Source of the DNA: Escherichia phage vB_EcoM_MM02
Sequence record: MK373784.1
Strand: one strand, 5' to 3'
DNA length: 64,000 nt
Shown here: one piece after another, positions 25,049 to 43,268 of the stretch
Layout: every line of letters starts with the position of its first letter
Position numbering within the stretch: position 1 is the stretch's first letter
Notes under the pieces: model-generated
What the model was told of the DNA's origin: nothing
The model's input: only the letters and a program-made list of their open reading frames with translations
Database searches by the model: none
Program-made: the position numbers and the translations under genes

Positions 25049-26872
25049 AACCTGAAGAAATGAAATCCATGCGTAGAAATAAGGTCATTGCCGATAATAA
25101 ACCACAAAAAGTAGCTGCAACAGCAGCTACCGATTCATTAGAAGCATTGAATGACATTTCATCAAAACTAGACGATGTCCAAGCCGCGTCTGAACTCACA
25201 TCACAAAGTGTAGAAGATAAAGGCAATGGAATCATTGAATCAATTGGAGACTTAAAGAATTCGACAGATAATACAAGGCAATGGAATCATTGAATCAATT
25301 GGAGACTTAAAGAATTCGACAGATAATACTGCTGAAGGCACAGAGCTTATCGCAGAAGTTATTGAAAAACAAACTGAAGTCACTAAAAGTATAAACGAAG
25401 TTTCTAGTGCAATAAGCTCTAAGTTAGACCGATTAGCTACATTATTAGAGCAAAAATTACAAACATCTACCGCTATTCAAAATACAGGAGGCACCTCTCT
25501 TGAAGTAATTGAGAACGCAATACCTGTTAAAGTGGTTGAGAATGAAACTTCTGATGAGTTGTTTAAAGCATTCCCTACACCTGAAAAGATTGATAATAAG
25601 CCAGACGAAGATTTCTTCCCAGCACCGGTTCAAGAAAGTGCTAATTCTACTTCCGATTCTAAAGGCGGAATTAGCTTTAAATTGAGCGATAAAATTGCAA
25701 TGCTCACCAAAACAGTTCAAACCGGGTTTAATAAATCAATATCAATTTCAGACAGAATTGCTGGAATGCTTTTCAAATACACTATAACGGCTGCTATTGA
25801 AGCAGCAAAAATGGCCGCACTTATTCTTGGTATTGTTATCGGTATTGATTTATTGATAGTCCATTTCAAATATTGGACAGACAAGTTCACTTCTGCCTGG
25901 GATTTATTTGATGAAAACTTTACTAAATTCTCTGACGAAGCTAAAGAGTGGGGTAAATTCTTAAGTGATATATTCACTTCTATTGACTCTATAAAACAAT
26001 TGTGGGAAGCTGGAGACTGGGGTGGTTTAACCGTTGCTATTGTCAAAGGTGTAGGAACAGCATTAATGAATTTAGGTGAACTAATTCAATTAGGAATGGC
26101 TAAACTCTCCGCGTCTATATTGCGTGCTATAGGTTTTGGTGATACCGCTGACGAAATAGAAGGACGTGCTTTGGAAGGATTCCAAGAAACTACTGGGAAC
26201 AAATTAAAGAAAGAAGACCAAGAGAAAGTCGCTAAATATCAAATGAAGCGTGACGATGGGGAATTAGGAACCGTTTCTAAAGGCCTTGATATGTTACAAC
26301 GTGGCAAAACATTCGTTACTAACTGGGTTCGTGGTAATGACAATAAAGAAGAGTTTAGTACAAGCGATGAGCGTGCTGCGGAATCAGCAAAATTAAAAGA
26401 GTTACCTGAAGAGGAGCGTAAAGAGGCGTATATAAAAGCTAATGAAACTCGTGCGGCACTGGTTAGATTTGAGGATTATATCGATAAAATCGATATGACT
26501 AATCCAGAAAATGCTAAAAACGTCGAGAAGTCTTATGCTGATTTAAGTAAACTTATTAAAGACCCTGAACTTAATAAAACTCCTGTTGTTAAAAAGGAAT
26601 TAGATGCTAGATTTGAAAAGCTAAATAATAAAATGGCTGAAGCCAAAAAGGCTCAGACCACAGTTAAGCCTGAATCTTCGTCTAAATCTCCGGAAGCAAA
26701 ACAAGTTCAGTCAATAGAGAAAGGACGTGCTTCTGAATCTAAACAACAGCAACCGGTAGCGGCGATTAGTAACACAAATAATGTCGTCAAAAAGAATACC
26801 GTAGTCCAGAATATGACCCCTGTAACAAGTACAACGGCTCCTGGAATTTTCCATGCCACCGGTGTTAATTAA
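25045..26872 (+). CDS. 29: baseplate hub / tail length determinator gp29, reading frame interrupted by a 55-bp tandem duplication (frameshift at 25275, premature TGA at 25291-25293)
   Basis: N-terminal 82-aa ORF (frame 1) and 446-aa ORF (frame 2) are joined in one frame if one 55-bp repeat copy is removed, giving 590 aa, the T4 gp29 length. Confidence 0.8.
25220..25329 (+). repeat. perfect tandem direct duplication, 2 x 55 bp, inside gene 29
   Basis: 25220-25274 and 25275-25329 are identical (aaggcaatggaatcattgaatcaattggagacttaaagaattcgacagataatac). Confidence 0.95.
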
Positions 26873-26880
26873 GGATTATT

Positions 26881-27990
26881 ATGATTAGTGTAAAAGAAAT
26901 AGTAGTAGATGCAAAGGATTTAAATAAAGCAATCCCAGTCACAGAAAGTGCTGGGCAAAGCACTAAAACCGAAACAACTACTAAAACTTATGTTGCTCAA
27001 TTTCCTACAGGAAGAGCAGCCGGAAATGACTCCACAGGAGACTTCCAGGTAACAGACCTTTATAAGAATGGATTATTATTTACCGCGTACAATATGTCTG
27101 CACGCGATTCAGGATCCCTCAGGAATTTACGTCCGGCATACGCCGGGACTTCATCTAACGGTATCATATCAGATTTAACTGATAATGTGAAAGATGCAGT
27201 GACTAAATTCTCTAATGGGTTGCTTCCTGCTGGAGCTAATAAATCAACCATAAATAAAACTCCTGTTGCTAATATACTTTTGCCACGTTCCAAATCTGAC
27301 GTTGATACAACTTCACATCGTTTTAATGATATCGGTGATAGTCTTATTACTAAAGGTGGAGGTACTGCTACGGGTGTTTTAAGTAACATTGCTTCTACTG
27401 CAGTCTTTGGTGCATTAGATTCTATTACCCAAGGGCTTATGGCCGATAATAACGAACAGATTTATACGACTTCTCGTAGTATGTATGGCGGTGCTGAGAA
27501 CCGTACTAAAGTCTTTACATGGGATTTAACTCCGCGTTCAACTGAAGACCTTATGGCTATTATAAACATTTACCAGTATTTTAACTATTTCTCATATGGT
27601 GAGACCGGTAAATCACAGTACGCCCAAGAGATTAAAAGTTATTTAGACGAATGGTACCGTTCAACGTTTATTGAGCCTATGACGCCAGATGATGCAGTAA
27701 AAAATAAGACATTGTTTGAAAAGATTACTGCGTCATTAACAAATGTATTAGTTGTAAGCAACCCTACAATTTGGATGGTTAAAAACTTTGGTTATACGTC
27801 TAAATTTGATGGATTAACTGACGTATTTGGTCCATGTCAAATTCAAAGCGTACGTTTTGATAAAACTCCAAATGGACAATTTAATGGTCTCGCTGTTGCT
27901 CCTAACTTACCATCAACATTTACGTTAGAGATAACAATGCGAGAAATTATTACATTAAACCGTTCTTCACTTTATGCGGGGACTTTCTAA
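26881..27990 (+). CDS. 48: baseplate tail tube cap gp48
   Basis: 369 aa (T4 364); synteny. Confidence 0.88.
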   Translation: MISVKEIVVDAKDLNKAIPVTESAGQSTKTETTTKTYVAQFPTGRAAGNDSTGDFQVTDLYKNGLLFTAYNMSARDSGSLRNLRPAYAGTSSNGIISDLTDNVKDAVTKFSNGLLPAGANKSTINKTPVANILLPRSKSDVDTTSHRFNDIGDSLITKGGGTATGVLSNIASTAVFGALDSITQGLMADNNEQIYTTSRSMYGGAENRTKVFTWDLTPRSTEDLMAIINIYQYFNYFSYGETGKSQYAQEIKSYLDEWYRSTFIEPMTPDDAVKNKTLFEKITASLTNVLVVSNPTIWMVKNFGYTSKFDGLTDVFGPCQIQSVRFDKTPNGQFNGLAVAPNLPSTFTLEITMREIITLNRSSLYAGTF

Positions 27991-36937: not shown

Positions 36938-37232
36938 TATAAATTCTCTTTAAATGAAAATGCAGGACTTATTGACATTGCCTGCGCAAGCCCTCAAGGG
37001 GAACATAGGTTTTGGATATTTAACGACAGGATAACCATAAACCCGTCATCATACCAACCACGACTTAGACAGATAACCTTTTTCTGACGCGTGATAGTAC
37101 AAAATACATTCAAGAGGTACACCGTAAAACTGCCGGGGCCTTAAAACTATAATGATTCGCAAATCATTAATCAGACAGTTCGACGGCTCCTCGATTTTCT
37201 AGCCGCACTTAAGGTAGCGAATCACCTAAAAC

Positions 37233-37481
37233 TTATTTAAGGGTAATAACAAAATGACGTACTGCTTTACGAGCTGCAGAAGCCAAAGGCTTAGCATATT
37301 TCAGTTCATCTTTTGCTTCCAGTTCAGAGGCCAAAGCTGCCTGTACCGGGTTCAGATGTTTGAAATAATGCAGGATTTCCAGTGCTTCGGCTTCAACATC
37401 AATCGACGCGCCGTAGTTTTCGTGACCGTTATTCCATGCGTTTCGTTGCAGTTCAAGAGCGTGTTGTAATTGTTTAATCAT
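37233..37481 (-). CDS. rIII: rIII lysis inhibition accessory protein
   Basis: 82 aa, same length as T4 RIII; N-terminus MIKQLQHALELQRNAWNNGHENYG matches my recollection of T4 RIII. Confidence 0.85.
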   Translation of the reverse strand: MIKQLQHALELQRNAWNNGHENYGASIDVEAEALEILHYFKHLNPVQAALASELEAKDELKYAKPLASAARKAVRHFVITLK

Positions 37482-37605
37482 TTTAAATTCTCAATTCGAG
37501 ATAATATTTAGTAGCCACGTTCGTCTGAATTTCACCTTCTTTCGACAAGTCTCTCAGTTGTAGGCTACCGCTTAGAAGAGTGTTCTCTTCATATAGTTAT
37601 TTATA

Positions 37606-37938
37606 TCACTTATAAAGACACGGAATAGCTTTATAGTGGCATGTTACGAATTTCTGTTTAATTTCTTTAGGTTGTTTAAGTCCCAAAGCCACAAATGGAT
37701 GTGGAACATTTCGAATTTGTCCAACTGGTAGTGGAGTCAAATCACCGACTTCAACAAAACCTTCAGGAACATCAGGACCTACAGAATGAACTACACATAG
37801 TTCAGGAACTTCACCTTGAACACGTTTACCAATCACAAGTCCTGATTCGGTAACTTCTTCATCACCTGCTTGAGCGGGTTCAGAAACCAGAATGACATAT
37901 TCACCAACAGCACGAATTGGGAGTTGTACTTCAGACAT
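37606..37938 (-). CDS. 31: co-chaperonin gp31 (GroES analogue)
   Basis: 110 aa; [54 protein letters not shown] matches T4 gp31. Confidence 0.93.
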
Positions 37939-37995
37939 CTTATTTCCTTGTTGTTTGACGATAGATTAATAATACCATACTATTCGTAAAGCATA

Positions 37996-38292
37996 TTACA
38001 TAAGAAGCAAACGTTCTACCGGAGTACCATCAACCGAAATTACTTTATCAAGGCGGAAAGAACGCCACTGACCTAACTTGGTATCGAATGCTCGAACTGA
38101 TTCACGAGGTTCAGAACGAACTTCTGTTGCCGGATTGTTATTTTCATATTTGACTTCAAGTTCATCGCGCGAAGCAAACATAGTGCGTACCTCACCGTTA
38201 GCCTTTTCAAATACAACACAATGAACGCCTACAGACAGAATAGTTTTAATACGTTCACGAAGAACCATAGTTTCTTGTTCAGTTAAAATCAT
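37996..38292 (-). CDS. hypothetical protein between cd and 31
   Basis: 98 aa from first ATG (track start is GTG); TAATATG junction with cd stop. Confidence 0.55.
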   Translation of the reverse strand: MILTEQETMVLRERIKTILSVGVHCVVFEKANGEVRTMFASRDELEVKYENNNPATEVRSEPRESVRAFDTKLGQWRSFRLDKVISVDGTPVERLLLM

Positions 38293-38293
38293 A

Positions 38294-38875
38294 TTATTCA
38301 CCACAAAAGTTTCGGATTTGTTCCCAATTCAGAGAACGAAGATTATTACGAGAGTACTGAATTACTTCAATACCGGCTTGTTTTAGAATGTCTGCCCAAT
38401 TTTCAGGAGATCTGTCATATAATTCTGCGTATACAACCTTTTTAATACCTGACTGTGTAATAGCTTTAGTGCAATCAGGACACGGAGAAAGCGTAGTATA
38501 TAACGTAGCACCTTCAATAGAATTACCTTTACGAGCTGCAAACAAAATTGCATTCAGTTCCGCATGGATTTCGTTATTAGCAGACCATGCACTATGAGCG
38601 GCCCGATGTTCTTTAGCCAAAACAAAATTATCTGCCCGTCCAAATGCTGTAGTGCCTTCTTTATGCCCAGCAACGATGACCGGGCTTGGTTTATTCTTCA
38701 ACCAACCGTTTTCGGATGCATGTTCGCAACAGTTTGTACCACCTGAAGGAGAGCCATTATAACCTGTAGAAATAATGCGTCCATCTTTTTCAATGACGGC
38801 GCCAACTTTCCATGAACAACATTTTGATTCTTGAGAAATCAGATATGCAATCTGAAGGTATGTGCTAGCTTTCAT
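38294..38875 (-). CDS. cd: dCMP deaminase
   Basis: 193 aa as T4 Cd; zinc-binding deaminase motifs HAELNAI and PCPDC. Confidence 0.92.
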   Translation of the reverse strand: MKASTYLQIAYLISQESKCCSWKVGAVIEKDGRIISTGYNGSPSGGTNCCEHASENGWLKNKPSPVIVAGHKEGTTAFGRADNFVLAKEHRAAHSAWSANNEIHAELNAILFAARKGNSIEGATLYTTLSPCPDCTKAITQSGIKKVVYAELYDRSPENWADILKQAGIEVIQYSRNNLRSLNWEQIRNFCGE

Positions 38876-39867
38876 TATTGAACCTTATTAATATAAGTTA
38901 ACAGCTCTTTAGTTTGTTCCCAACTGATGCACGCATCGGTAACGGAAACGCCATAGGACATATTATCAGAAATTTTTTGATTTCCTTCATGTAGGAATGA
39001 TTCTATCATAATTCCTTTGACCAAATCATTAGCTGCTAAATTTTTACCAATACCAATTTGATTGCTATAATGTCCATCAGCGTTTGCATGGCTACAGTCA
39101 ACCATTACATAATGATTCAGACCTACTGCACTTGCTTTGTTAGAAGCTTCTTGAATATCAGAAGAATGATAGTTCGGGCCGTTGGTCCCGCCACGCAATA
39201 CGATATGCGTATTCTGATTACCTTCAGCTTCAACAATGCCTACAGTACCATCGACGTCCATACCCATATACCGATGAGGCCAGGCGGCACTATACATCGC
39301 GTCTGTAGCTACTTTAATAGAACCATTGGTTGCGTTCTTGAAGCCTACGCACATCGGTAGACCTGAAGCAATTTCACGATGTGTCTGACTTTCAGTCGTA
39401 CGGGCGCCAATAGCAACCCATGAGAAAATACCAGAAAGATACTTAATCGTGAATGGGTCTAATACTTCAGTTGCTAATGGAAGTCCCATACGTAGAAGTT
39501 TACGACACAATGTTCGTGCAACTATAAGACCGTGGTTCATATCAAAACTTCCGTCAAGATATGGATCATTTACAAGACCTTTCCAACCTACGGTAGTTCG
39601 AGGCTTTTCAAAATAAACGCGCATCACTAACAGAACATTAGGAAGACGAGTTTGAAGTTCAGCCAGACGTTTGCCGTATTCAACAGCAGCAATAGGGTCA
39701 TGAATTGAACAAGGACCTACAACAATAAGTTTGCGTGGGTCTTCACCATTCATAATCGAATTAACTTGTTCGCGATGAGAAGCCACTTGTGATGCGTAAG
39801 CTTCCGACAAAGGAATAATCTCGGCCAGTTCTTTTGGAGAAATAAGTTTTCCGACGACAGGTAACAT
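38875..39867 (-). CDS. 3-deoxy-D-arabino-heptulosonate-7-phosphate (DAHP) synthase, class I (AroG/AroF/AroH-like)
   Basis: 330 aa; motifs VVGPCSIHD, VYFEKPRTTVGWKGL, GARTTESQTHRE, VMVDCSHAN, SFLHEGNQ and DACISWE align with E. coli AroG; stop overlaps cd start (TAATG). Confidence 0.85.
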   Translation of the reverse strand: MLPVVGKLISPKELAEIIPLSEAYASQVASHREQVNSIMNGEDPRKLIVVGPCSIHDPIAAVEYGKRLAELQTRLPNVLLVMRVYFEKPRTTVGWKGLVNDPYLDGSFDMNHGLIVARTLCRKLLRMGLPLATEVLDPFTIKYLSGIFSWVAIGARTTESQTHREIASGLPMCVGFKNATNGSIKVATDAMYSAAWPHRYMGMDVDGTVGIVEAEGNQNTHIVLRGGTNGPNYHSSDIQEASNKASAVGLNHYVMVDCSHANADGHYSNQIGIGKNLAANDLVKGIMIESFLHEGNQKISDNMSYGVSVTDACISWEQTKELLTYINKVQ

Positions 39868-39987
39868 AACAATCCTTAGGAGATATAAACAGATTCTGAT
39901 TCAACAATACCTTTAACCGGATTAGACAGGCTAAGTTGGTAGTGCTCAGATTTATGACCATTCTCGATAGTAATGAGATAGCTCTCA

Positions 39988-40224
39988 TTATAGTGTTCCA
40001 TATACTCGAGTTGCTTCAACAAGACCATCACTGCATAATTTAAGATTAGTAATTTGGTCACCATCTTTAGGATTAACGATTATGAGAAAAGAACGTGGAG
40101 ATTCTTGAATAACTCGTAATGTTGCATCTTGGAAACGTTCAGACACTTTATTGATGAGTGCTTGAGCAAATTCTTTTACTTTAATCTGAAATTCGTGTAC
40201 TGTAATTGGGTTTTCACTTAGCAT
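39988..40224 (-). CDS. hypothetical protein
   Basis: 78-aa ORF with ATG start; early promoter at 40243-40272. Confidence 0.55.
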   Translation of the reverse strand: MLSENPITVHEFQIKVKEFAQALINKVSERFQDATLRVIQESPRSFLIIVNPKDGDQITNLKLCSDGLVEATRVYGTL

Positions 40225-40242
40225 TTCTATTTCCTCATTTGT

Positions 40243-40272
40243 TGGTAGAGTTATAGTATCACAACTCTACCA
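40243..40272 (-). promoter_or_regulatory. early promoter for the 39988-40224 gene
   Basis: minus-strand GTTTACAACATGGTAGAGTTGTGATACTAT. Confidence 0.55.
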
Positions 40273-40284
40273 TGTTGTAAACCA

Positions 40285-40560
40285 TTAAATTGCTTTGCAT
40301 TCAATTTTTTGTGTACCGAAATTGATATCACATTGGATAACTAAATCGCCGTCAAGATCAAATACCACTATGACGTGTGCAGACCCAGGGAGAAGAGTAA
40401 TAGCAATAGAATCTACTTGGCCTGGGAGCAAAGCATTGAGTACATGAGTTAGTTGAGCATGAACTCTGAGTTCGGCTGCATTATCAAGCACTTCAAACAT
40501 ATTATTAGCAATAATCTGACTGAAGACTACCTTTACAATTTCAGAATAAGTTGGGAACAT
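40285..40560 (-). CDS. hypothetical protein
   Basis: 91-aa ORF with ATG start. Confidence 0.5.
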   Translation of the reverse strand: MFPTYSEIVKVVFSQIIANNMFEVLDNAAELRVHAQLTHVLNALLPGQVDSIAITLLPGSAHVIVVFDLDGDLVIQCDINFGTQKIECKAI

Positions 40561-40567
40561 AATTACC

Positions 40568-40792
40568 TCAGTGTACAGTATTTACTTTAACTCGAACAAC
40601 AAATCGCTCGGTCGGTTCACCTACAGGAACAAACTCTACATGATATTCGCCTTTGTAACGAGTATTCAGATCATTACGAATTTCGGTAAGCTTGTTGATT
40701 AATGTAGAACTCATATTAAGTCCCACTAGTTTACGAAGCATTTTGTATGCTTCATCTTCGATTTCATGATGTTTATCGTACATAGTTTTCAT
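40568..40792 (-). CDS. hypothetical protein
   Basis: 74-aa ORF with ATG start. Confidence 0.5.
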   Translation of the reverse strand: MKTMYDKHHEIEDEAYKMLRKLVGLNMSSTLINKLTEIRNDLNTRYKGEYHVEFVPVGEPTERFVVRVKVNTVH

Positions 40793-40964
40793 TTAACCAT
40801 TCAATTGCCTGGTCGACGTTATCAAATATACCACCGTCCAAACGTTCTTCATGCTCATAGTCCAGCACATCAATACCGAACTGTCCATTTACTAAAGGCC
40901 AGGCTACAAACAAATATTCTTTATGCTGTTCGATGGCCTCAATCACTTCATATAATCGTTTCAT
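40773..40964 (-). CDS. hypothetical protein
   Basis: 63-aa ORF with ATG start, directly upstream of pseT. Confidence 0.5.
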   Translation of the reverse strand: MKRLYEVIEAIEQHKEYLFVAWPLVNGQFGIDVLDYEHEERLDGGIFDNVDQAIEWLNENYVR

Positions 40965-42051
<1,087 letters not shown>

Positions 42052-42052
<1 letters not shown>

Positions 42053-42351
42053 TATTTTATTCCTAAGAAAGTTTCAAGAATATGAATGTTGTGCTCGCGC
42101 CGGTCTTTATTAATTTCAGCAACGTTTTTATTAATTGACGTACTTCTAACGTTTGAAGAAATAAATTTAATCATATGACTTTTGAGTTGTTGCAAATCCA
42201 ACCCTTTTTCTTTAGCAGCTTTACGAAGAGCTTTACCTGCTTCATCTAGTGCCTTTGCTGCATCTTCATCATAATTGTCAAGTGACATTCCACGACAGAT
42301 ATCAATATACTCATCAGAACGTTTGATGTAATTCTCTAGTAATGTTTTCAT
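42052..42351 (-). CDS. hypothetical protein
   Basis: 99-aa ORF; early promoter at 42381-42410. Confidence 0.55.
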
Positions 42352-42380
42352 TTAGATTTCCTCAATTATCCAACGAGAGC

Positions 42381-42410
42381 ATTATACTCTGCTCCCAAGA
42401 GTTTGTAAAC
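42381..42410 (-). promoter_or_regulatory. early promoter for the 42052-42351 gene
   Basis: minus-strand GTTTACAAACTCTTGGGAGCAGAGTATAAT. Confidence 0.55.
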
Positions 42411-42634
42411 TATTTTACTAAAGATTCAATATACTCATGAAGAGCTTTAGTCGCTACTGCCCACTTGTTTTGGTATTCATTTTTCAGATTAGCACGAGAC
42501 TGAACTAACAAGCGGTCATTAGTCGGAGGCAAAGATTCTAATCGTTGAATCTGGCGTCCATAAATCATAGCCGCCATTTCAGATTCATAGATAAGCCCTT
42601 TAAGGTACTCGTGTTGTTCTTTAGTCATTGACAT
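42410..42634 (-). CDS. hypothetical protein
   Basis: 74-aa ORF, ATG start. Confidence 0.5.
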   Translation of the reverse strand: MSMTKEQHEYLKGLIYESEMAAMIYGRQIQRLESLPPTNDRLLVQSRANLKNEYQNKWAVATKALHEYIESLVK

Positions 42635-42915
42635 TTTTCCTCTTTTAAACCACTACGATAATAACATAACATAGTCTTCTGGTCATGTACATATCTTTTT
42701 ACGTCGTTTAACCAGATACGAAATTCTTGAGAGTCTTCAAATGGCATTCCAACCCACGGATTACCATCAATAACCTTTACTTGCCATTTCTGGTTGTATT
42801 CGGAAATAGGCGTAGGCCATGAAGGATGTAAAGTTTCTTTAGGGCTTACTGGCACATCCTGAGTACATCCAACTAGGAGACCAATAGATAATACAGCCAC
42901 AGTTAATTTAATCAT
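42625..42915 (-). CDS. outer-membrane spanin lipoprotein (Rz1-like, T4 pseT.2 equivalent)
   Basis: 96 aa; signal peptide with lipobox LLVGC; immediately downstream of, and overlapping, the i-spanin gene. Confidence 0.7.
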   Translation of the reverse strand: MIKLTVAVLSIGLLVGCTQDVPVSPKETLHPSWPTPISEYNQKWQVKVIDGNPWVGMPFEDSQEFRIWLNDVKRYVHDQKTMLCYYRSGLKEEKCQ

Positions 42916-43268
42916 TCTGAGAGCTTCCTGAGGTCTTCTGCAAAGGAATCGAAGGACCTGTTGATTTGTTTTTCGACCAATCCTGGCTTACTTGCCACCA
43001 CGTTCTTCTTCTTCGAATCCTGACGGAGCTTTTCATTTTCAGCCTTAAGTTGGTCAACTAAAACACGGTTCTTATAAGTCATTTCTTCGATTGACTGATA
43101 TTGAATCTTGAAGTCGTCTAATACTTTAGCATTGTTTTTAGCAGTCTCTTTAACAGAAGCCAATTCAGTATTCAGCGAATCGACTTTATGGTTCAGAAAT
43201 GCTATTGTTACAGTAGCAACAACTGCAAAAGCTGCCACTACAATATATGATGCATTTACTTTAAGCAT
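42912..43268 (-). CDS. inner-membrane spanin (Rz-like, T4 pseT.3 equivalent)
   Basis: 118 aa; N-terminal transmembrane segment YIVVAAFAVVATVTIAF followed by coiled-coil-like Lys/Glu-rich region. Confidence 0.7.
   Translation of the reverse strand: MLKVNASYIVVAAFAVVATVTIAFLNHKVDSLNTELASVKETAKNNAKVLDDFKIQYQSIEEMTYKNRVLVDQLKAENEKLRQDSKKKNVVASKPGLVEKQINRSFDSFAEDLRKLSE

Follow-up and report, generated by a model that had tools for sequence, protein, structure and literature searches.

A DAHP synthase gene of Escherichia phage vB_EcoM_MM02 and its possible role in supplying prephenate for cytosine hydroxylation

The DNA of Mosigvirus phages contains arabosylated 5-hydroxycytosine instead of hydroxymethylcytosine (PMC13390438, PMC13326640), and the modification cluster, situated between gene 43 and uvsX, comprises a thymidylate synthase (TS) homologue, enzymes of the UDP-arabinose pathway, glycosyltransferases and, in phage RB69, the protein gp50 (PMC13326640). 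The TS homologue makes 5-hydroxy-dCMP with flavin and O2, the UDP-arabinose pathway starts from ribulose-5-phosphate (Ru5P) and includes a phage-encoded arabinose-5-phosphate isomerase, and gp50 was labelled by its authors a 'sugar or heterocycle reductase' (PMC13326640). In bacteria, the C5 hydroxylation of a cytidine in 23S rRNA (ho5C) and of a uridine in tRNA (ho5U) requires two proteins of the U32 family, RlhA and TrhP, respectively; each of them relies on the shikimate pathway as far as prephenate, and TrhP, which works without O2, is paired with the O2-dependent TrhO (PMC5727448, PMC6599085). Here, we analyze a gene for DAHP (3-deoxy-D-arabinoheptulosonate 7-phosphate) synthase, or DAHPS, which lies on the minus strand at positions 38875..39867 of a 64,000-nucleotide stretch of Escherichia phage vB_EcoM_MM02 (sequence record MK373784.1), the whole of which is referred to as the window in the following. 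By analogy with RlhA and TrhP, we propose, with a probability of roughly 55%, that the purpose of this enzyme would be to supply prephenate for a step carried out by a phage U32 protein, the homologue of RB69 gp50, in the 5-hydroxycytosine modification of phage DNA.

The gene starts with ATG and encodes a protein of 330 amino acids, which the list of open reading frames (ORFs) and matches in Pfam, NCBIfam, PHROG and PDB, all far beyond chance, identify as an AroF-like DAHP synthase of type I-alpha. Namely, the protein matches Pfam PF00793 (DAHP_synth_1) at 6.8e-75 and 251.9 bits (cut-off 25.5), passes the NCBIfam aroFGH equivalog TIGR00034 (427.2 bits vs. a cut-off of 173.2) as well as the subfamily model NF009395 (454.7 bits, cut-off 343), and matches PHROG 5045 over its full length (605 bits, E = 5.1e-182, residues 1-330 on positions 8-337 of a 341-position profile). 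A preliminary description, made from the nucleotide letters and ORF translations, had recognized a class I DAHP synthase by the motifs VVGPCSIHD, VYFEKPRTTVGWKGL, GARTTESQTHRE, VMVDCSHAN, SFLHEGNQ and DACISWE, all of which are indeed in the translation, and had called the protein AroG-like. While the AroF/AroG/AroH family is thereby correctly named, the closest member is actually AroF: the identity in a MAFFT alignment is 51.1% to AroF, 47.1% to AroG and 43.8% to AroH, the best solved relative found in PDB is E. coli AroF (6AGM, 354 bits, 5.7e-105, with AroG at 309 bits), and the protein fails both the AroG equivalog NF006723 (363.1 bits vs. a cut-off of 568) and the AroH-specific NCBIfam model (385 bits, cut-off 463). 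The metal ligands C53, H260, E289 and D311 (AroG Cys61, His268, Glu302 and Asp326) are intact and are conserved in all 128 aligned homologues. What is more, the residues that contact phosphoenolpyruvate (PEP) and erythrose-4-phosphate (E4P) are identical to those of AroG (R83, K88-P-R-T91, G154-A-R156, K177 and R225, the AroG counterparts being Arg92, Lys97-Pro-Arg-Thr100, Gly163-Ala-Arg165, Lys186 and Arg234). In other words, the alignment of metal and PEP ligands with AroG, which had been put forward as a check, reveals no loss. Judging by these residues, the protein is very probably an active, catalytically competent enzyme that condenses PEP and E4P to DAHP.

The phage enzyme differs from its bacterial relatives at the site of feedback inhibition. 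The preliminary description had pointed to an N-terminus some 8 residues shorter than that of AroG and had speculated about altered allosteric control. The count is right, as 52 residues precede the catalytic Cys in the window protein, compared with 60 in AroG and 61 in AroF, and the speculation gains strength at the sequence level from the short N-terminus together with the replacement of Gln151 and Ser180 (AroG numbering) throughout the phage clade. For the phage clade we used six genus representatives and 30 clusters that a 5.8-billion-protein database yielded on searching, and for comparison 98 bacterial homologues. The catalytic Cys is preceded by 48-52 residues in 30 of 30 phage-clade proteins and by 58-95 residues (median 61) in the bacterial ones. 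The window protein has I141-K142 at AroG Pro150-Gln151 and P171 at Ser180, a pattern found in 28 of the 30 phage-clade proteins, with the variants IRP and PKP in the other two. Gln151 and Ser180 are kept in none of the 30, all of which have Pro at 180, and Gln151 and Ser/Thr180 are kept in all 98 bacterial homologues. The window protein is, in this sense, without the N-terminal strand and the Pro150-Gln151 and Ser180 contacts of the AroF/AroG/AroH feedback site. In AroF, the N-terminal changes N8K and deletion of Ile11 give feedback resistance. Likewise, P150L and S180F abolish feedback inhibition, and Q151/Q152 and S180/S181 touch the bound Phe or Tyr inhibitor (PMC9529685). Since the N-terminal strand is missing and Gln151 and Ser180 are replaced clade-wide, insensitivity to Phe, Tyr and Trp can be predicted, and we consider a feedback-insensitive phage enzyme to be probable. 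That said, the effector pocket could have been retuned rather than lost, in which case the enzyme would still be allosteric and would respond to another ligand, e.g. prephenate, chorismate or a modified nucleotide. The MAFFT alignment shows the pocket-forming beta6a/6b insertion to be still in place, and I141, K142, P171, S193, Y200 and G202 are essentially invariant across phage genera which are only 55-77% identical overall, although this invariance may instead stem from structural packing. With part of the known site taken away along with the N-terminal strand, and with no ligand that could be inferred from the sequence, we regard such retuning as rather unlikely and proceed with feedback insensitivity as the prediction.

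The proposed consumer of prephenate, the RB69 gp50 homologue, is a member of the Peptidase_U32 family (Pfam, 7.4e-11). It represents a separate, divergent subfamily, scoring 42 bits against the Pfam model and 18.5 bits against the UbiU model, and a PDB sequence search with the phage U32 protein gave no matches. In a MAFFT alignment with E. coli RlhA, TrhP, UbiU and UbiV, the motif Glu aligns, and the placement of the two motif Cys is ambiguous. Among 29 phage-type U32 proteins the motif Glu is kept and ten Cys are invariant, i.e. C158, C177, C192, C203, C209, C233, C340, C345, C349 and C352 in the numbering of the protein from phage vB_EcoM_WFK, the last four forming a C-terminal CX4CX3CX2C. 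This invariant pattern suggests one or two Fe-S clusters, and the residues would be in keeping with the kind of Fe-S chemistry that RlhA and TrhP use.

The two proteins are connected, first of all, by their distribution. A tblastn search matches the DAHPS protein in 212 of 50,697 phage records and the U32 protein in 221, and tblastn with the two proteins concatenated yields a union of 242 records, with both genes in 191, DAHPS only in 21 and U32 only in 30. As many as 17 of the 21 DAHPS-only records are distant matches (below 60% identity) outside the Straboviridae DAHPS clade; one of the other four was identified as partial (CEV1) and a second is suspected to be so, and no complete Straboviridae genome was seen that has DAHPS but not U32. 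Among the U32-only records seen are those of RB69, Pectobacterium PM2 and six Yersinia phages, along with partial ones. A 5-hydroxy-dCMP-synthase-like gene is found in 373 phage records, about 150 of them without U32, including 57 Acinetobacter and 20 Rhizobium records and the Dhakaviruses of E. coli. Since these synthase-bearing phages without U32 are also without a phage-clade-type DAHPS match, DAHPS tracks U32 and not the hydroxylase or arabinosylation genes. This distribution bears on the idea of a carbon-flux sink, whereby the use of E4P and PEP by DAHPS would pull the non-oxidative pentose-phosphate pathway towards Ru5P, for both nucleotides and UDP-arabinose. Such a sink would fit with DAHPS phages encoding arabinose-5-phosphate isomerase and making UDP-arabinose from Ru5P (PMC13326640), as well as with one metagenomic locus (L024) in which SIS, kinase-like and epimerase genes lie beside U32 and DAHPS. 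However, the phages with a gp48-like synthase and no U32 (the 57 Acinetobacter records; Dhakavirus), which are reported to include members that arabinosylate cytosine, have no phage-clade-type DAHPS, and the chorismate mutases and DAHPS-chorismate mutase fusions described below would be left unexplained, which makes the flux sink very unlikely in our view. A direct role of DAHPS in arabinose synthesis, as might be read from '3-deoxy-D-arabino', was considered separately and rejected: DAHPS is not required for the published UDP-arabinose route, which begins with Ru5P.

Many relatives, moreover, encode a prephenate-forming enzyme. In Kanagawavirus Entb_45, a chorismate mutase of 79 residues (Pfam CM_2, 40.9 bits, cut-off 27) is encoded between the U32 gene and that of the TS homologue; it keeps Arg11, Arg28, Lys39 and Glu52, and its gene overlaps both neighbors with its start and stop. 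Chorismate mutase is present in 51 phage records, in every one of them beside the TS-homologue gene (beside U32); the hosts or names involved are Klebsiella, Serratia, Yersinia, Enterobacter, Edwardsiella, Erwinia, Pectobacterium, EcS1, Shewanella, Providencia and Morganella, and a Proteus phage has it as well. The enzyme channels chorismate into prephenate and thereby withdraws it from folate via p-aminobenzoate, from 4-hydroxybenzoate and quinones, from isochorismate and siderophores, and from Trp. This matters for the possibility that DAHPS supplies some other chorismate-derived cofactor, be it p-aminobenzoate and folate for thymidylate synthesis, quinones or a siderophore. The gene does lie among nucleotide-metabolism genes, next to cd and, further on, nrdAB, td and frd, and td needs folate. 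Nevertheless, Tequatroviruses lack DAHPS despite a larger folate demand, arising from the folate-dependent hydroxymethylation of all dCMP, and the DAHPS-bearing phages use a flavin/O2 enzyme instead. As the companion gene, chorismate mutase, leads chorismate away from precisely these products, we deem this possibility extremely unlikely. In Mosigvirus, the position of chorismate mutase is taken by a non-homologous ORF of 79 amino acids (L005:8167-8406 in WFK, equivalent to RB69 gp49). As a candidate for a cryptic chorismate mutase this ORF was rejected, since it gave no signal in Pfam, NCBIfam or PDB and does not resemble the Entb_45 enzyme, and Yersinia phage TG1 and Serratia phage 92A1 carry both it and a chorismate mutase.

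The same genes also meet outside Straboviridae. Homologues of the phage U32 subfamily, 46-58% identical, occur in many metagenomic viral contigs, and we scanned 56 U32 loci with flanks of ±7-10 kb from IMG/VR, ENA and Logan viral contigs. The typical neighbors are genes for DnaE-type polymerase, dCMP deaminase, thymidylate-kinase-like, radical-SAM and glycosyltransferase proteins. In part of the scanned loci, with U32 homologues of 46-55% identity, shikimate-pathway genes lie directly beside U32 on the same strand. These are stand-alone type I-beta DAHPS cores without a regulatory domain (L024, L043), lone chorismate mutases (L061, L064, L065, L076), and DAHPS-chorismate mutase fusions of type I-beta, with DAHP_synth_1 as the N-terminal and CM_2 as the C-terminal part (L054:8399-9430, L055:3-968, L057:7290-8354, L058:8323-9384 and L067:11076-12194). 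Such neighbors are found in 5 of the 24 non-Straboviridae U32 lineages (defined at 70% U32 identity), a lower bound given the short flanks. Since the I-beta enzymes are not orthologues of the I-alpha enzyme of the window, the same pathway steps have been recruited next to U32 more than once. A tblastn search of GenBank phages with a DAHPS-chorismate mutase fusion returned almost nothing reliable, and their genomes hardly contain this kind of fusion.

These adjacencies are also relevant to the most conventional explanation of the gene, i.e. that of a generic auxiliary metabolic gene which provides more Phe, Tyr and Trp for phage proteins after host shut-off and has no link to DNA modification. 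DAHPS canonically has such a role, PHROG 5045 is classed as 'moron, auxiliary metabolic gene', a deregulated entry enzyme would raise the flux to all three amino acids, and some phage DAHPS genes have no U32 nearby. On the other hand, 888 records match the pseT-cd region and only 212 have DAHPS, so that hundreds of T4-like phages do without it, and in Straboviridae the gene is confined to U32-bearing genomes. The sole other shikimate-related gene of these phages is chorismate mutase, which commits to prephenate, diverts from Trp and sits inside the modification cluster; prephenate dehydratase, prephenate dehydrogenase and aminotransferase genes were not seen; and unrelated phages have DAHPS or chorismate mutase next to U32. 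We therefore think it unlikely that general amino acid supply is what the gene is for. The wider statement of the preliminary description, that this is an auxiliary metabolic gene outside the T4 gene set, is nonetheless correct, and even RB69 is without it.

Two further observations concern the surroundings of U32 in the contigs. In a 466-kb viral contig (L021:7447-9086) and a 60-kb one (L025:6504-8083), the U32 homologue comes right after a dCMP deaminase gene, close to a DnaE-type polymerase, and in the former the two genes overlap, which links the U32 subfamily to deoxycytidine nucleotide metabolism outside T4-like phages. Another U32 locus (L027:4777-13179) contains Gly_transf_sug and TAGT-like glycosyltransferases, a dUTPase/DCD gene and a UDP-galactopyranose mutase-like gene, which suggests that the same hydroxylation step leads to another glycosylated base here.

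How could these components work together? We envisage that DAHPS would be expressed from the early pseT-cd transcription unit and that, being deregulated, it would stay active once the host isoenzymes have been switched off by Phe, Tyr and Trp, thereby driving carbon along the shikimate pathway of the host as far as chorismate and on to prephenate. The latter conversion would be performed by phage chorismate mutase in many relatives and by host PheA/TyrA in Mosigvirus. Prephenate would then serve the U32 protein of the arabinosyl-5-hydroxycytosine cluster, which may carry out a prephenate-dependent, O2-independent C5 hydroxylation of cytosine in the manner of RlhA and TrhP. The purpose of the flux, the U32 reaction and its substrate are what we infer here from enzyme identity, conserved residues, co-occurrence and gene adjacency, which are observed directly. 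As for the demand, a genome of about 169 kb with 38% GC should contain about 64,000 cytosines, amounting to about 10^7 hydroxylations per burst of 100-200 phage, and this would be substantial if prephenate were used stoichiometrically. In addition, the known phage 5-hydroxy-dCMP synthase needs O2 and flavin, and anoxic hosts are therefore left without a route. In a broader and more tentative generalization, to which we give somewhat less than even odds, many phages could carry a portable prephenate module, consisting of a deregulated DAHPS and/or chorismate mutase together with the U32 Fe-S protein, for O2-independent C5 hydroxylation of cytosine towards glycosylated 5-hydroxycytosine DNA. With the same reserve, the module might be seen as the anaerobic counterpart of the O2/flavin 5-hydroxy-dCMP synthase, mirroring the TrhO/TrhP pair, in which case the window gene would be its flux-driving entry enzyme.

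Several observations weigh against the proposed supply of prephenate to U32. RB69 is reported to replace all of its cytosine (PMC13326640), and as it does so without DAHPS, the gene is dispensable, at least aerobically. Moreover, the TS homologue and its dNMP kinase suffice for 5-hydroxycytosine in E. coli (PMC13326640). Mosigvirus has no recognizable chorismate mutase and would consequently depend on the host PheA/TyrA. Tegunavirus, PM2 and Thanatos have U32 and chorismate mutase but not DAHPS, and the Dhakaviruses infect E. coli without U32, DAHPS or chorismate mutase. Conversely, the examined flanks of DAHPS in Aeromonas phage HJ05 and in fecal contigs L018 and L077 contain no U32, meaning that the link between DAHPS and U32 is not universal. 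In Straboviridae, a distance of roughly 60 kb or more separates DAHPS and the U32 cluster, and the co-occurrence could thus reflect the shared ancestry of one clade. Finally, hydroxylation by the phage U32 protein is predicted from family membership, the Glu and Cys residues and gene context, and its published label is that of a reductase.

The existence of the gene is not new, because it is already annotated in many records, as phospho-2-dehydro-3-deoxyheptonate aldolase or AroF, and has its own PHROG family, 5045. The survey of phage genomes, another check proposed at the outset, shows it to be widespread, with annotations in about 190 Straboviridae genomes. On the other hand, a full-text literature search turned up no published work on the function of a phage DAHPS, the domain being simply listed in one genome note (PMC8022965). 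Likewise, no literature was found that links DAHPS, chorismate mutase, U32 and prephenate in phages, although recent modification papers may already discuss U32. What appears to be undescribed, then, is that the allosteric site has been rebuilt throughout the clade, that the gene is restricted to phages with U32 in the arabinosyl-5-hydroxycytosine cluster, and that DAHPS and chorismate mutase are repeatedly coupled with U32 in phage DNA-modification clusters.

The 7 kb around the gene are 97-99% identical to Mosigvirus phages (vB_EcoM_WFK, JK45, JS09-like), the nearest relative of the window being WFK at 99.1%, with its U32 gene at 26321..27487. The DAHPS protein is at least 95% identical in 139 records (Mosigvirus), 77% in Kanagawavirus, 67-69% in Kagamiyama-, Winkler- and Marfavirus, 58% in Bragavirus and about 55% in Providencia phages. 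Six genera, at 58-77% identity, have the gene in one and the same place, between pseT/cd.x and cd. It adjoins cd in Mosigvirus and in Kanagawavirus Entb_45, but is separated from it by one or two small ORFs in those of Kagamiyama-, Marfa-, Winkler- and Bragavirus that represent their genera. The conserved feature is hence the pseT-cd slot rather than coupling to cd. The view of the preliminary description that the gene is integral to an early nucleotide-metabolism operon stands insofar as it does sit in the pseT-cd early region, while the abutment with cd on which that view leaned is limited to the two cases just given. The gene has a GC content of 41.1% (window 38.1%) and differs from that of phage moskry by 4 synonymous and 0 non-synonymous changes, and no close bacterial donor is seen, the best bacterial matches being about 54% identical and spread over many phyla. 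The conserved slot in six genera, a GC content near that of the window, the absence of non-synonymous changes and the lack of a close donor together argue for long residence under purifying selection. Separately, we observed that Shigella phage JK45 (NC_054940.1; L019/L020) is listed in RefSeq as a Tequatrovirus, yet it is 98.7% identical to the Mosigvirus window and has the Mosigvirus U32 and DAHPS, so that the label looks wrong. Aeromonas phage HJ05 (L017:6257-7904), in turn, has an independently acquired type I-alpha DAHPS of 387 amino acids with 38% identity and a long N-terminus, adjoining an Acb2/Tad1-like anti-defence sponge and a methyltransferase.

RB69, the type Mosigvirus, has no DAHPS gene, and its cd.2 directly adjoins cd. 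In a blastn comparison, the flanks align to RB69 (41000..39979 at 97.3% and 38878..37927 at 96.0%) with nothing in between, which defines a DAHPS cassette of 1,100 bp missing from RB69 (38879..39978, minus strand). The same comparison reveals a 13-bp direct repeat on the minus strand with the consensus ATAATGA(G/A)AGCTA. Its upstream copy, ATAATGAGAGCTA (39979..39991), is a copy of the cd.2-stop/cd-start junction; its downstream copy, ATAATGAAAGCTA (38866..38878), lies at the DAHPS-stop/cd-start junction; and both cassette flanks align to the same 13 bases of RB69, where they are present once. This layout suggests either deletion between the repeats in RB69 or illegitimate insertion. Given that the gene is an ancestral trait of the wider clade, its loss from RB69 through such a deletion is most likely. 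A partial cd.2-like (DUF7320) copy lies between cd.2 and DAHPS (39876..39990, minus strand), as the 3' part, or last ~37 residues, of a 62-residue ORF (39876..40064; PHROG 15876) that overlaps the end of cd.2. Residues 26-61 of this ORF match positions 43-76 of the DUF7320 profile and the N-terminal half of DUF7320 is absent; the ORF, which is unannotated in phage moskry, is probably a gene remnant at the cassette boundary.

The immediate surroundings of the gene, all on the minus strand, are as follows. A Shine-Dalgarno sequence, AAGGA (39873..39877), can be read 5 nt before the DAHPS ATG. At the other end, the DAHPS stop TAA (38877..38875) and the cd start ATG (38875..38873) form a TAATG overlap (38873..38877) with one base in common, just as the preliminary description had it. 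Directly downstream lies the dCMP deaminase gene cd (38294..38875, 193 aa; Pfam dCMP_cyt_deam_1 1.6e-26, PHROG 174). The RB69 cd (L002:9743-10252) is annotated with 169 amino acids and diverges from the window protein after '...ADILK', apparently through a frameshift or a sequencing error close to the 3' end in the RB69 record. The upstream neighbor is the cd.2 homologue (39988..40224; DUF7320, 78 aa, Pfam 7.1e-35), annotated in moskry and RB69. Upstream of cd.2, a consensus scan gives a sigma-70-like promoter candidate, TTTACA-17-TACTAT with an extended TG (40253..40281), from a scan for promoters and terminators in which the number of sites was no higher than in shuffled sequence, and no minus-strand terminator candidates were found across the scanned 37000..43000.

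Arabinosyl-5-hydroxycytosine DNA was elucidated only in 2025-2026, and the published pathway is O2-dependent, yet the hosts are gut Enterobacterales, which are often without O2. If our proposal is true, it would explain the presence of the unassigned RB69 gp50 in the modification cluster, would provide the first virus case of a shikimate pathway rewired for a nucleic-acid modification, and would predict that therapeutic Mosigvirus phages differ in fitness depending on O2 and amino acids. In this sense, an unexplained 'metabolic' gene is turned into a testable hypothesis about anaerobic DNA hypermodification. Regardless of its role, the phage clade offers natural DAHP synthases that are probably feedback-insensitive, a property sought after in the bioproduction of aromatic compounds.

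Compared with known systems, the window enzyme is like E. coli AroF, AroG and AroH in family, length class, metal and PEP ligands, KPRT motif and beta6a/6b insertion. It is unlike them in being encoded by a lytic phage, in an N-terminus that is 8-10 residues shorter, and in the replacement of Pro150-Gln151 by Ile-Lys, Ser180 by Pro, Ala202 by Ser and Phe209 by Tyr (AroG numbering). The phage clade is substituted at the same inhibitor-contact positions as engineered, feedback-resistant enzymes (AroG P150L, S180F and Q151 and AroF P148L, PMC9529685; also N-terminal changes of AroF), with the difference that the phage combination is natural, ancient, clade-wide and not a single point mutation, and that its resistance is predicted from residues. 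The phage U32 protein resembles RlhA (ho5C2501 in 23S rRNA) and TrhP (ho5U34 in tRNA) in having the motif Glu and many invariant Cys, and its gene adjoins a cytosine C5 hydroxylation gene and those of prephenate-forming enzymes; it differs in the spacing of the motif Cys and in its candidate substrates, which would be dCMP, dCTP or DNA. The U32 type also includes UbiU/UbiV, an O2-independent system of ubiquinone hydroxylation. Cellular U32 genes are unlinked to the pathway enzymes, whereas viruses bring DAHPS and/or chorismate mutase along. Bifunctional enzymes of DAHPS and chorismate mutase are known in bacteria (NCBIfam NF009239), with the chorismate mutase at the N-terminus in the Bacillus AroA(G) type and at the C-terminus in the Porphyromonas type. 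Like them, the DAHP_synth_1 and CM_2 fusions of metagenomic phages join two activities that Straboviridae encode separately, and unlike these fusions, which are of type I-beta, have a C-terminal chorismate mutase and lie beside U32, the window enzyme is of type I-alpha and unfused. Finally, classical auxiliary metabolic genes of phages include talC, zwf and psbA of cyanophages. The window gene is similar to these in that a host-derived enzyme of central metabolism is kept by a lytic phage to redirect flux, but its proposed purpose would be a co-substrate for DNA base modification and not energy or bulk nucleotides.

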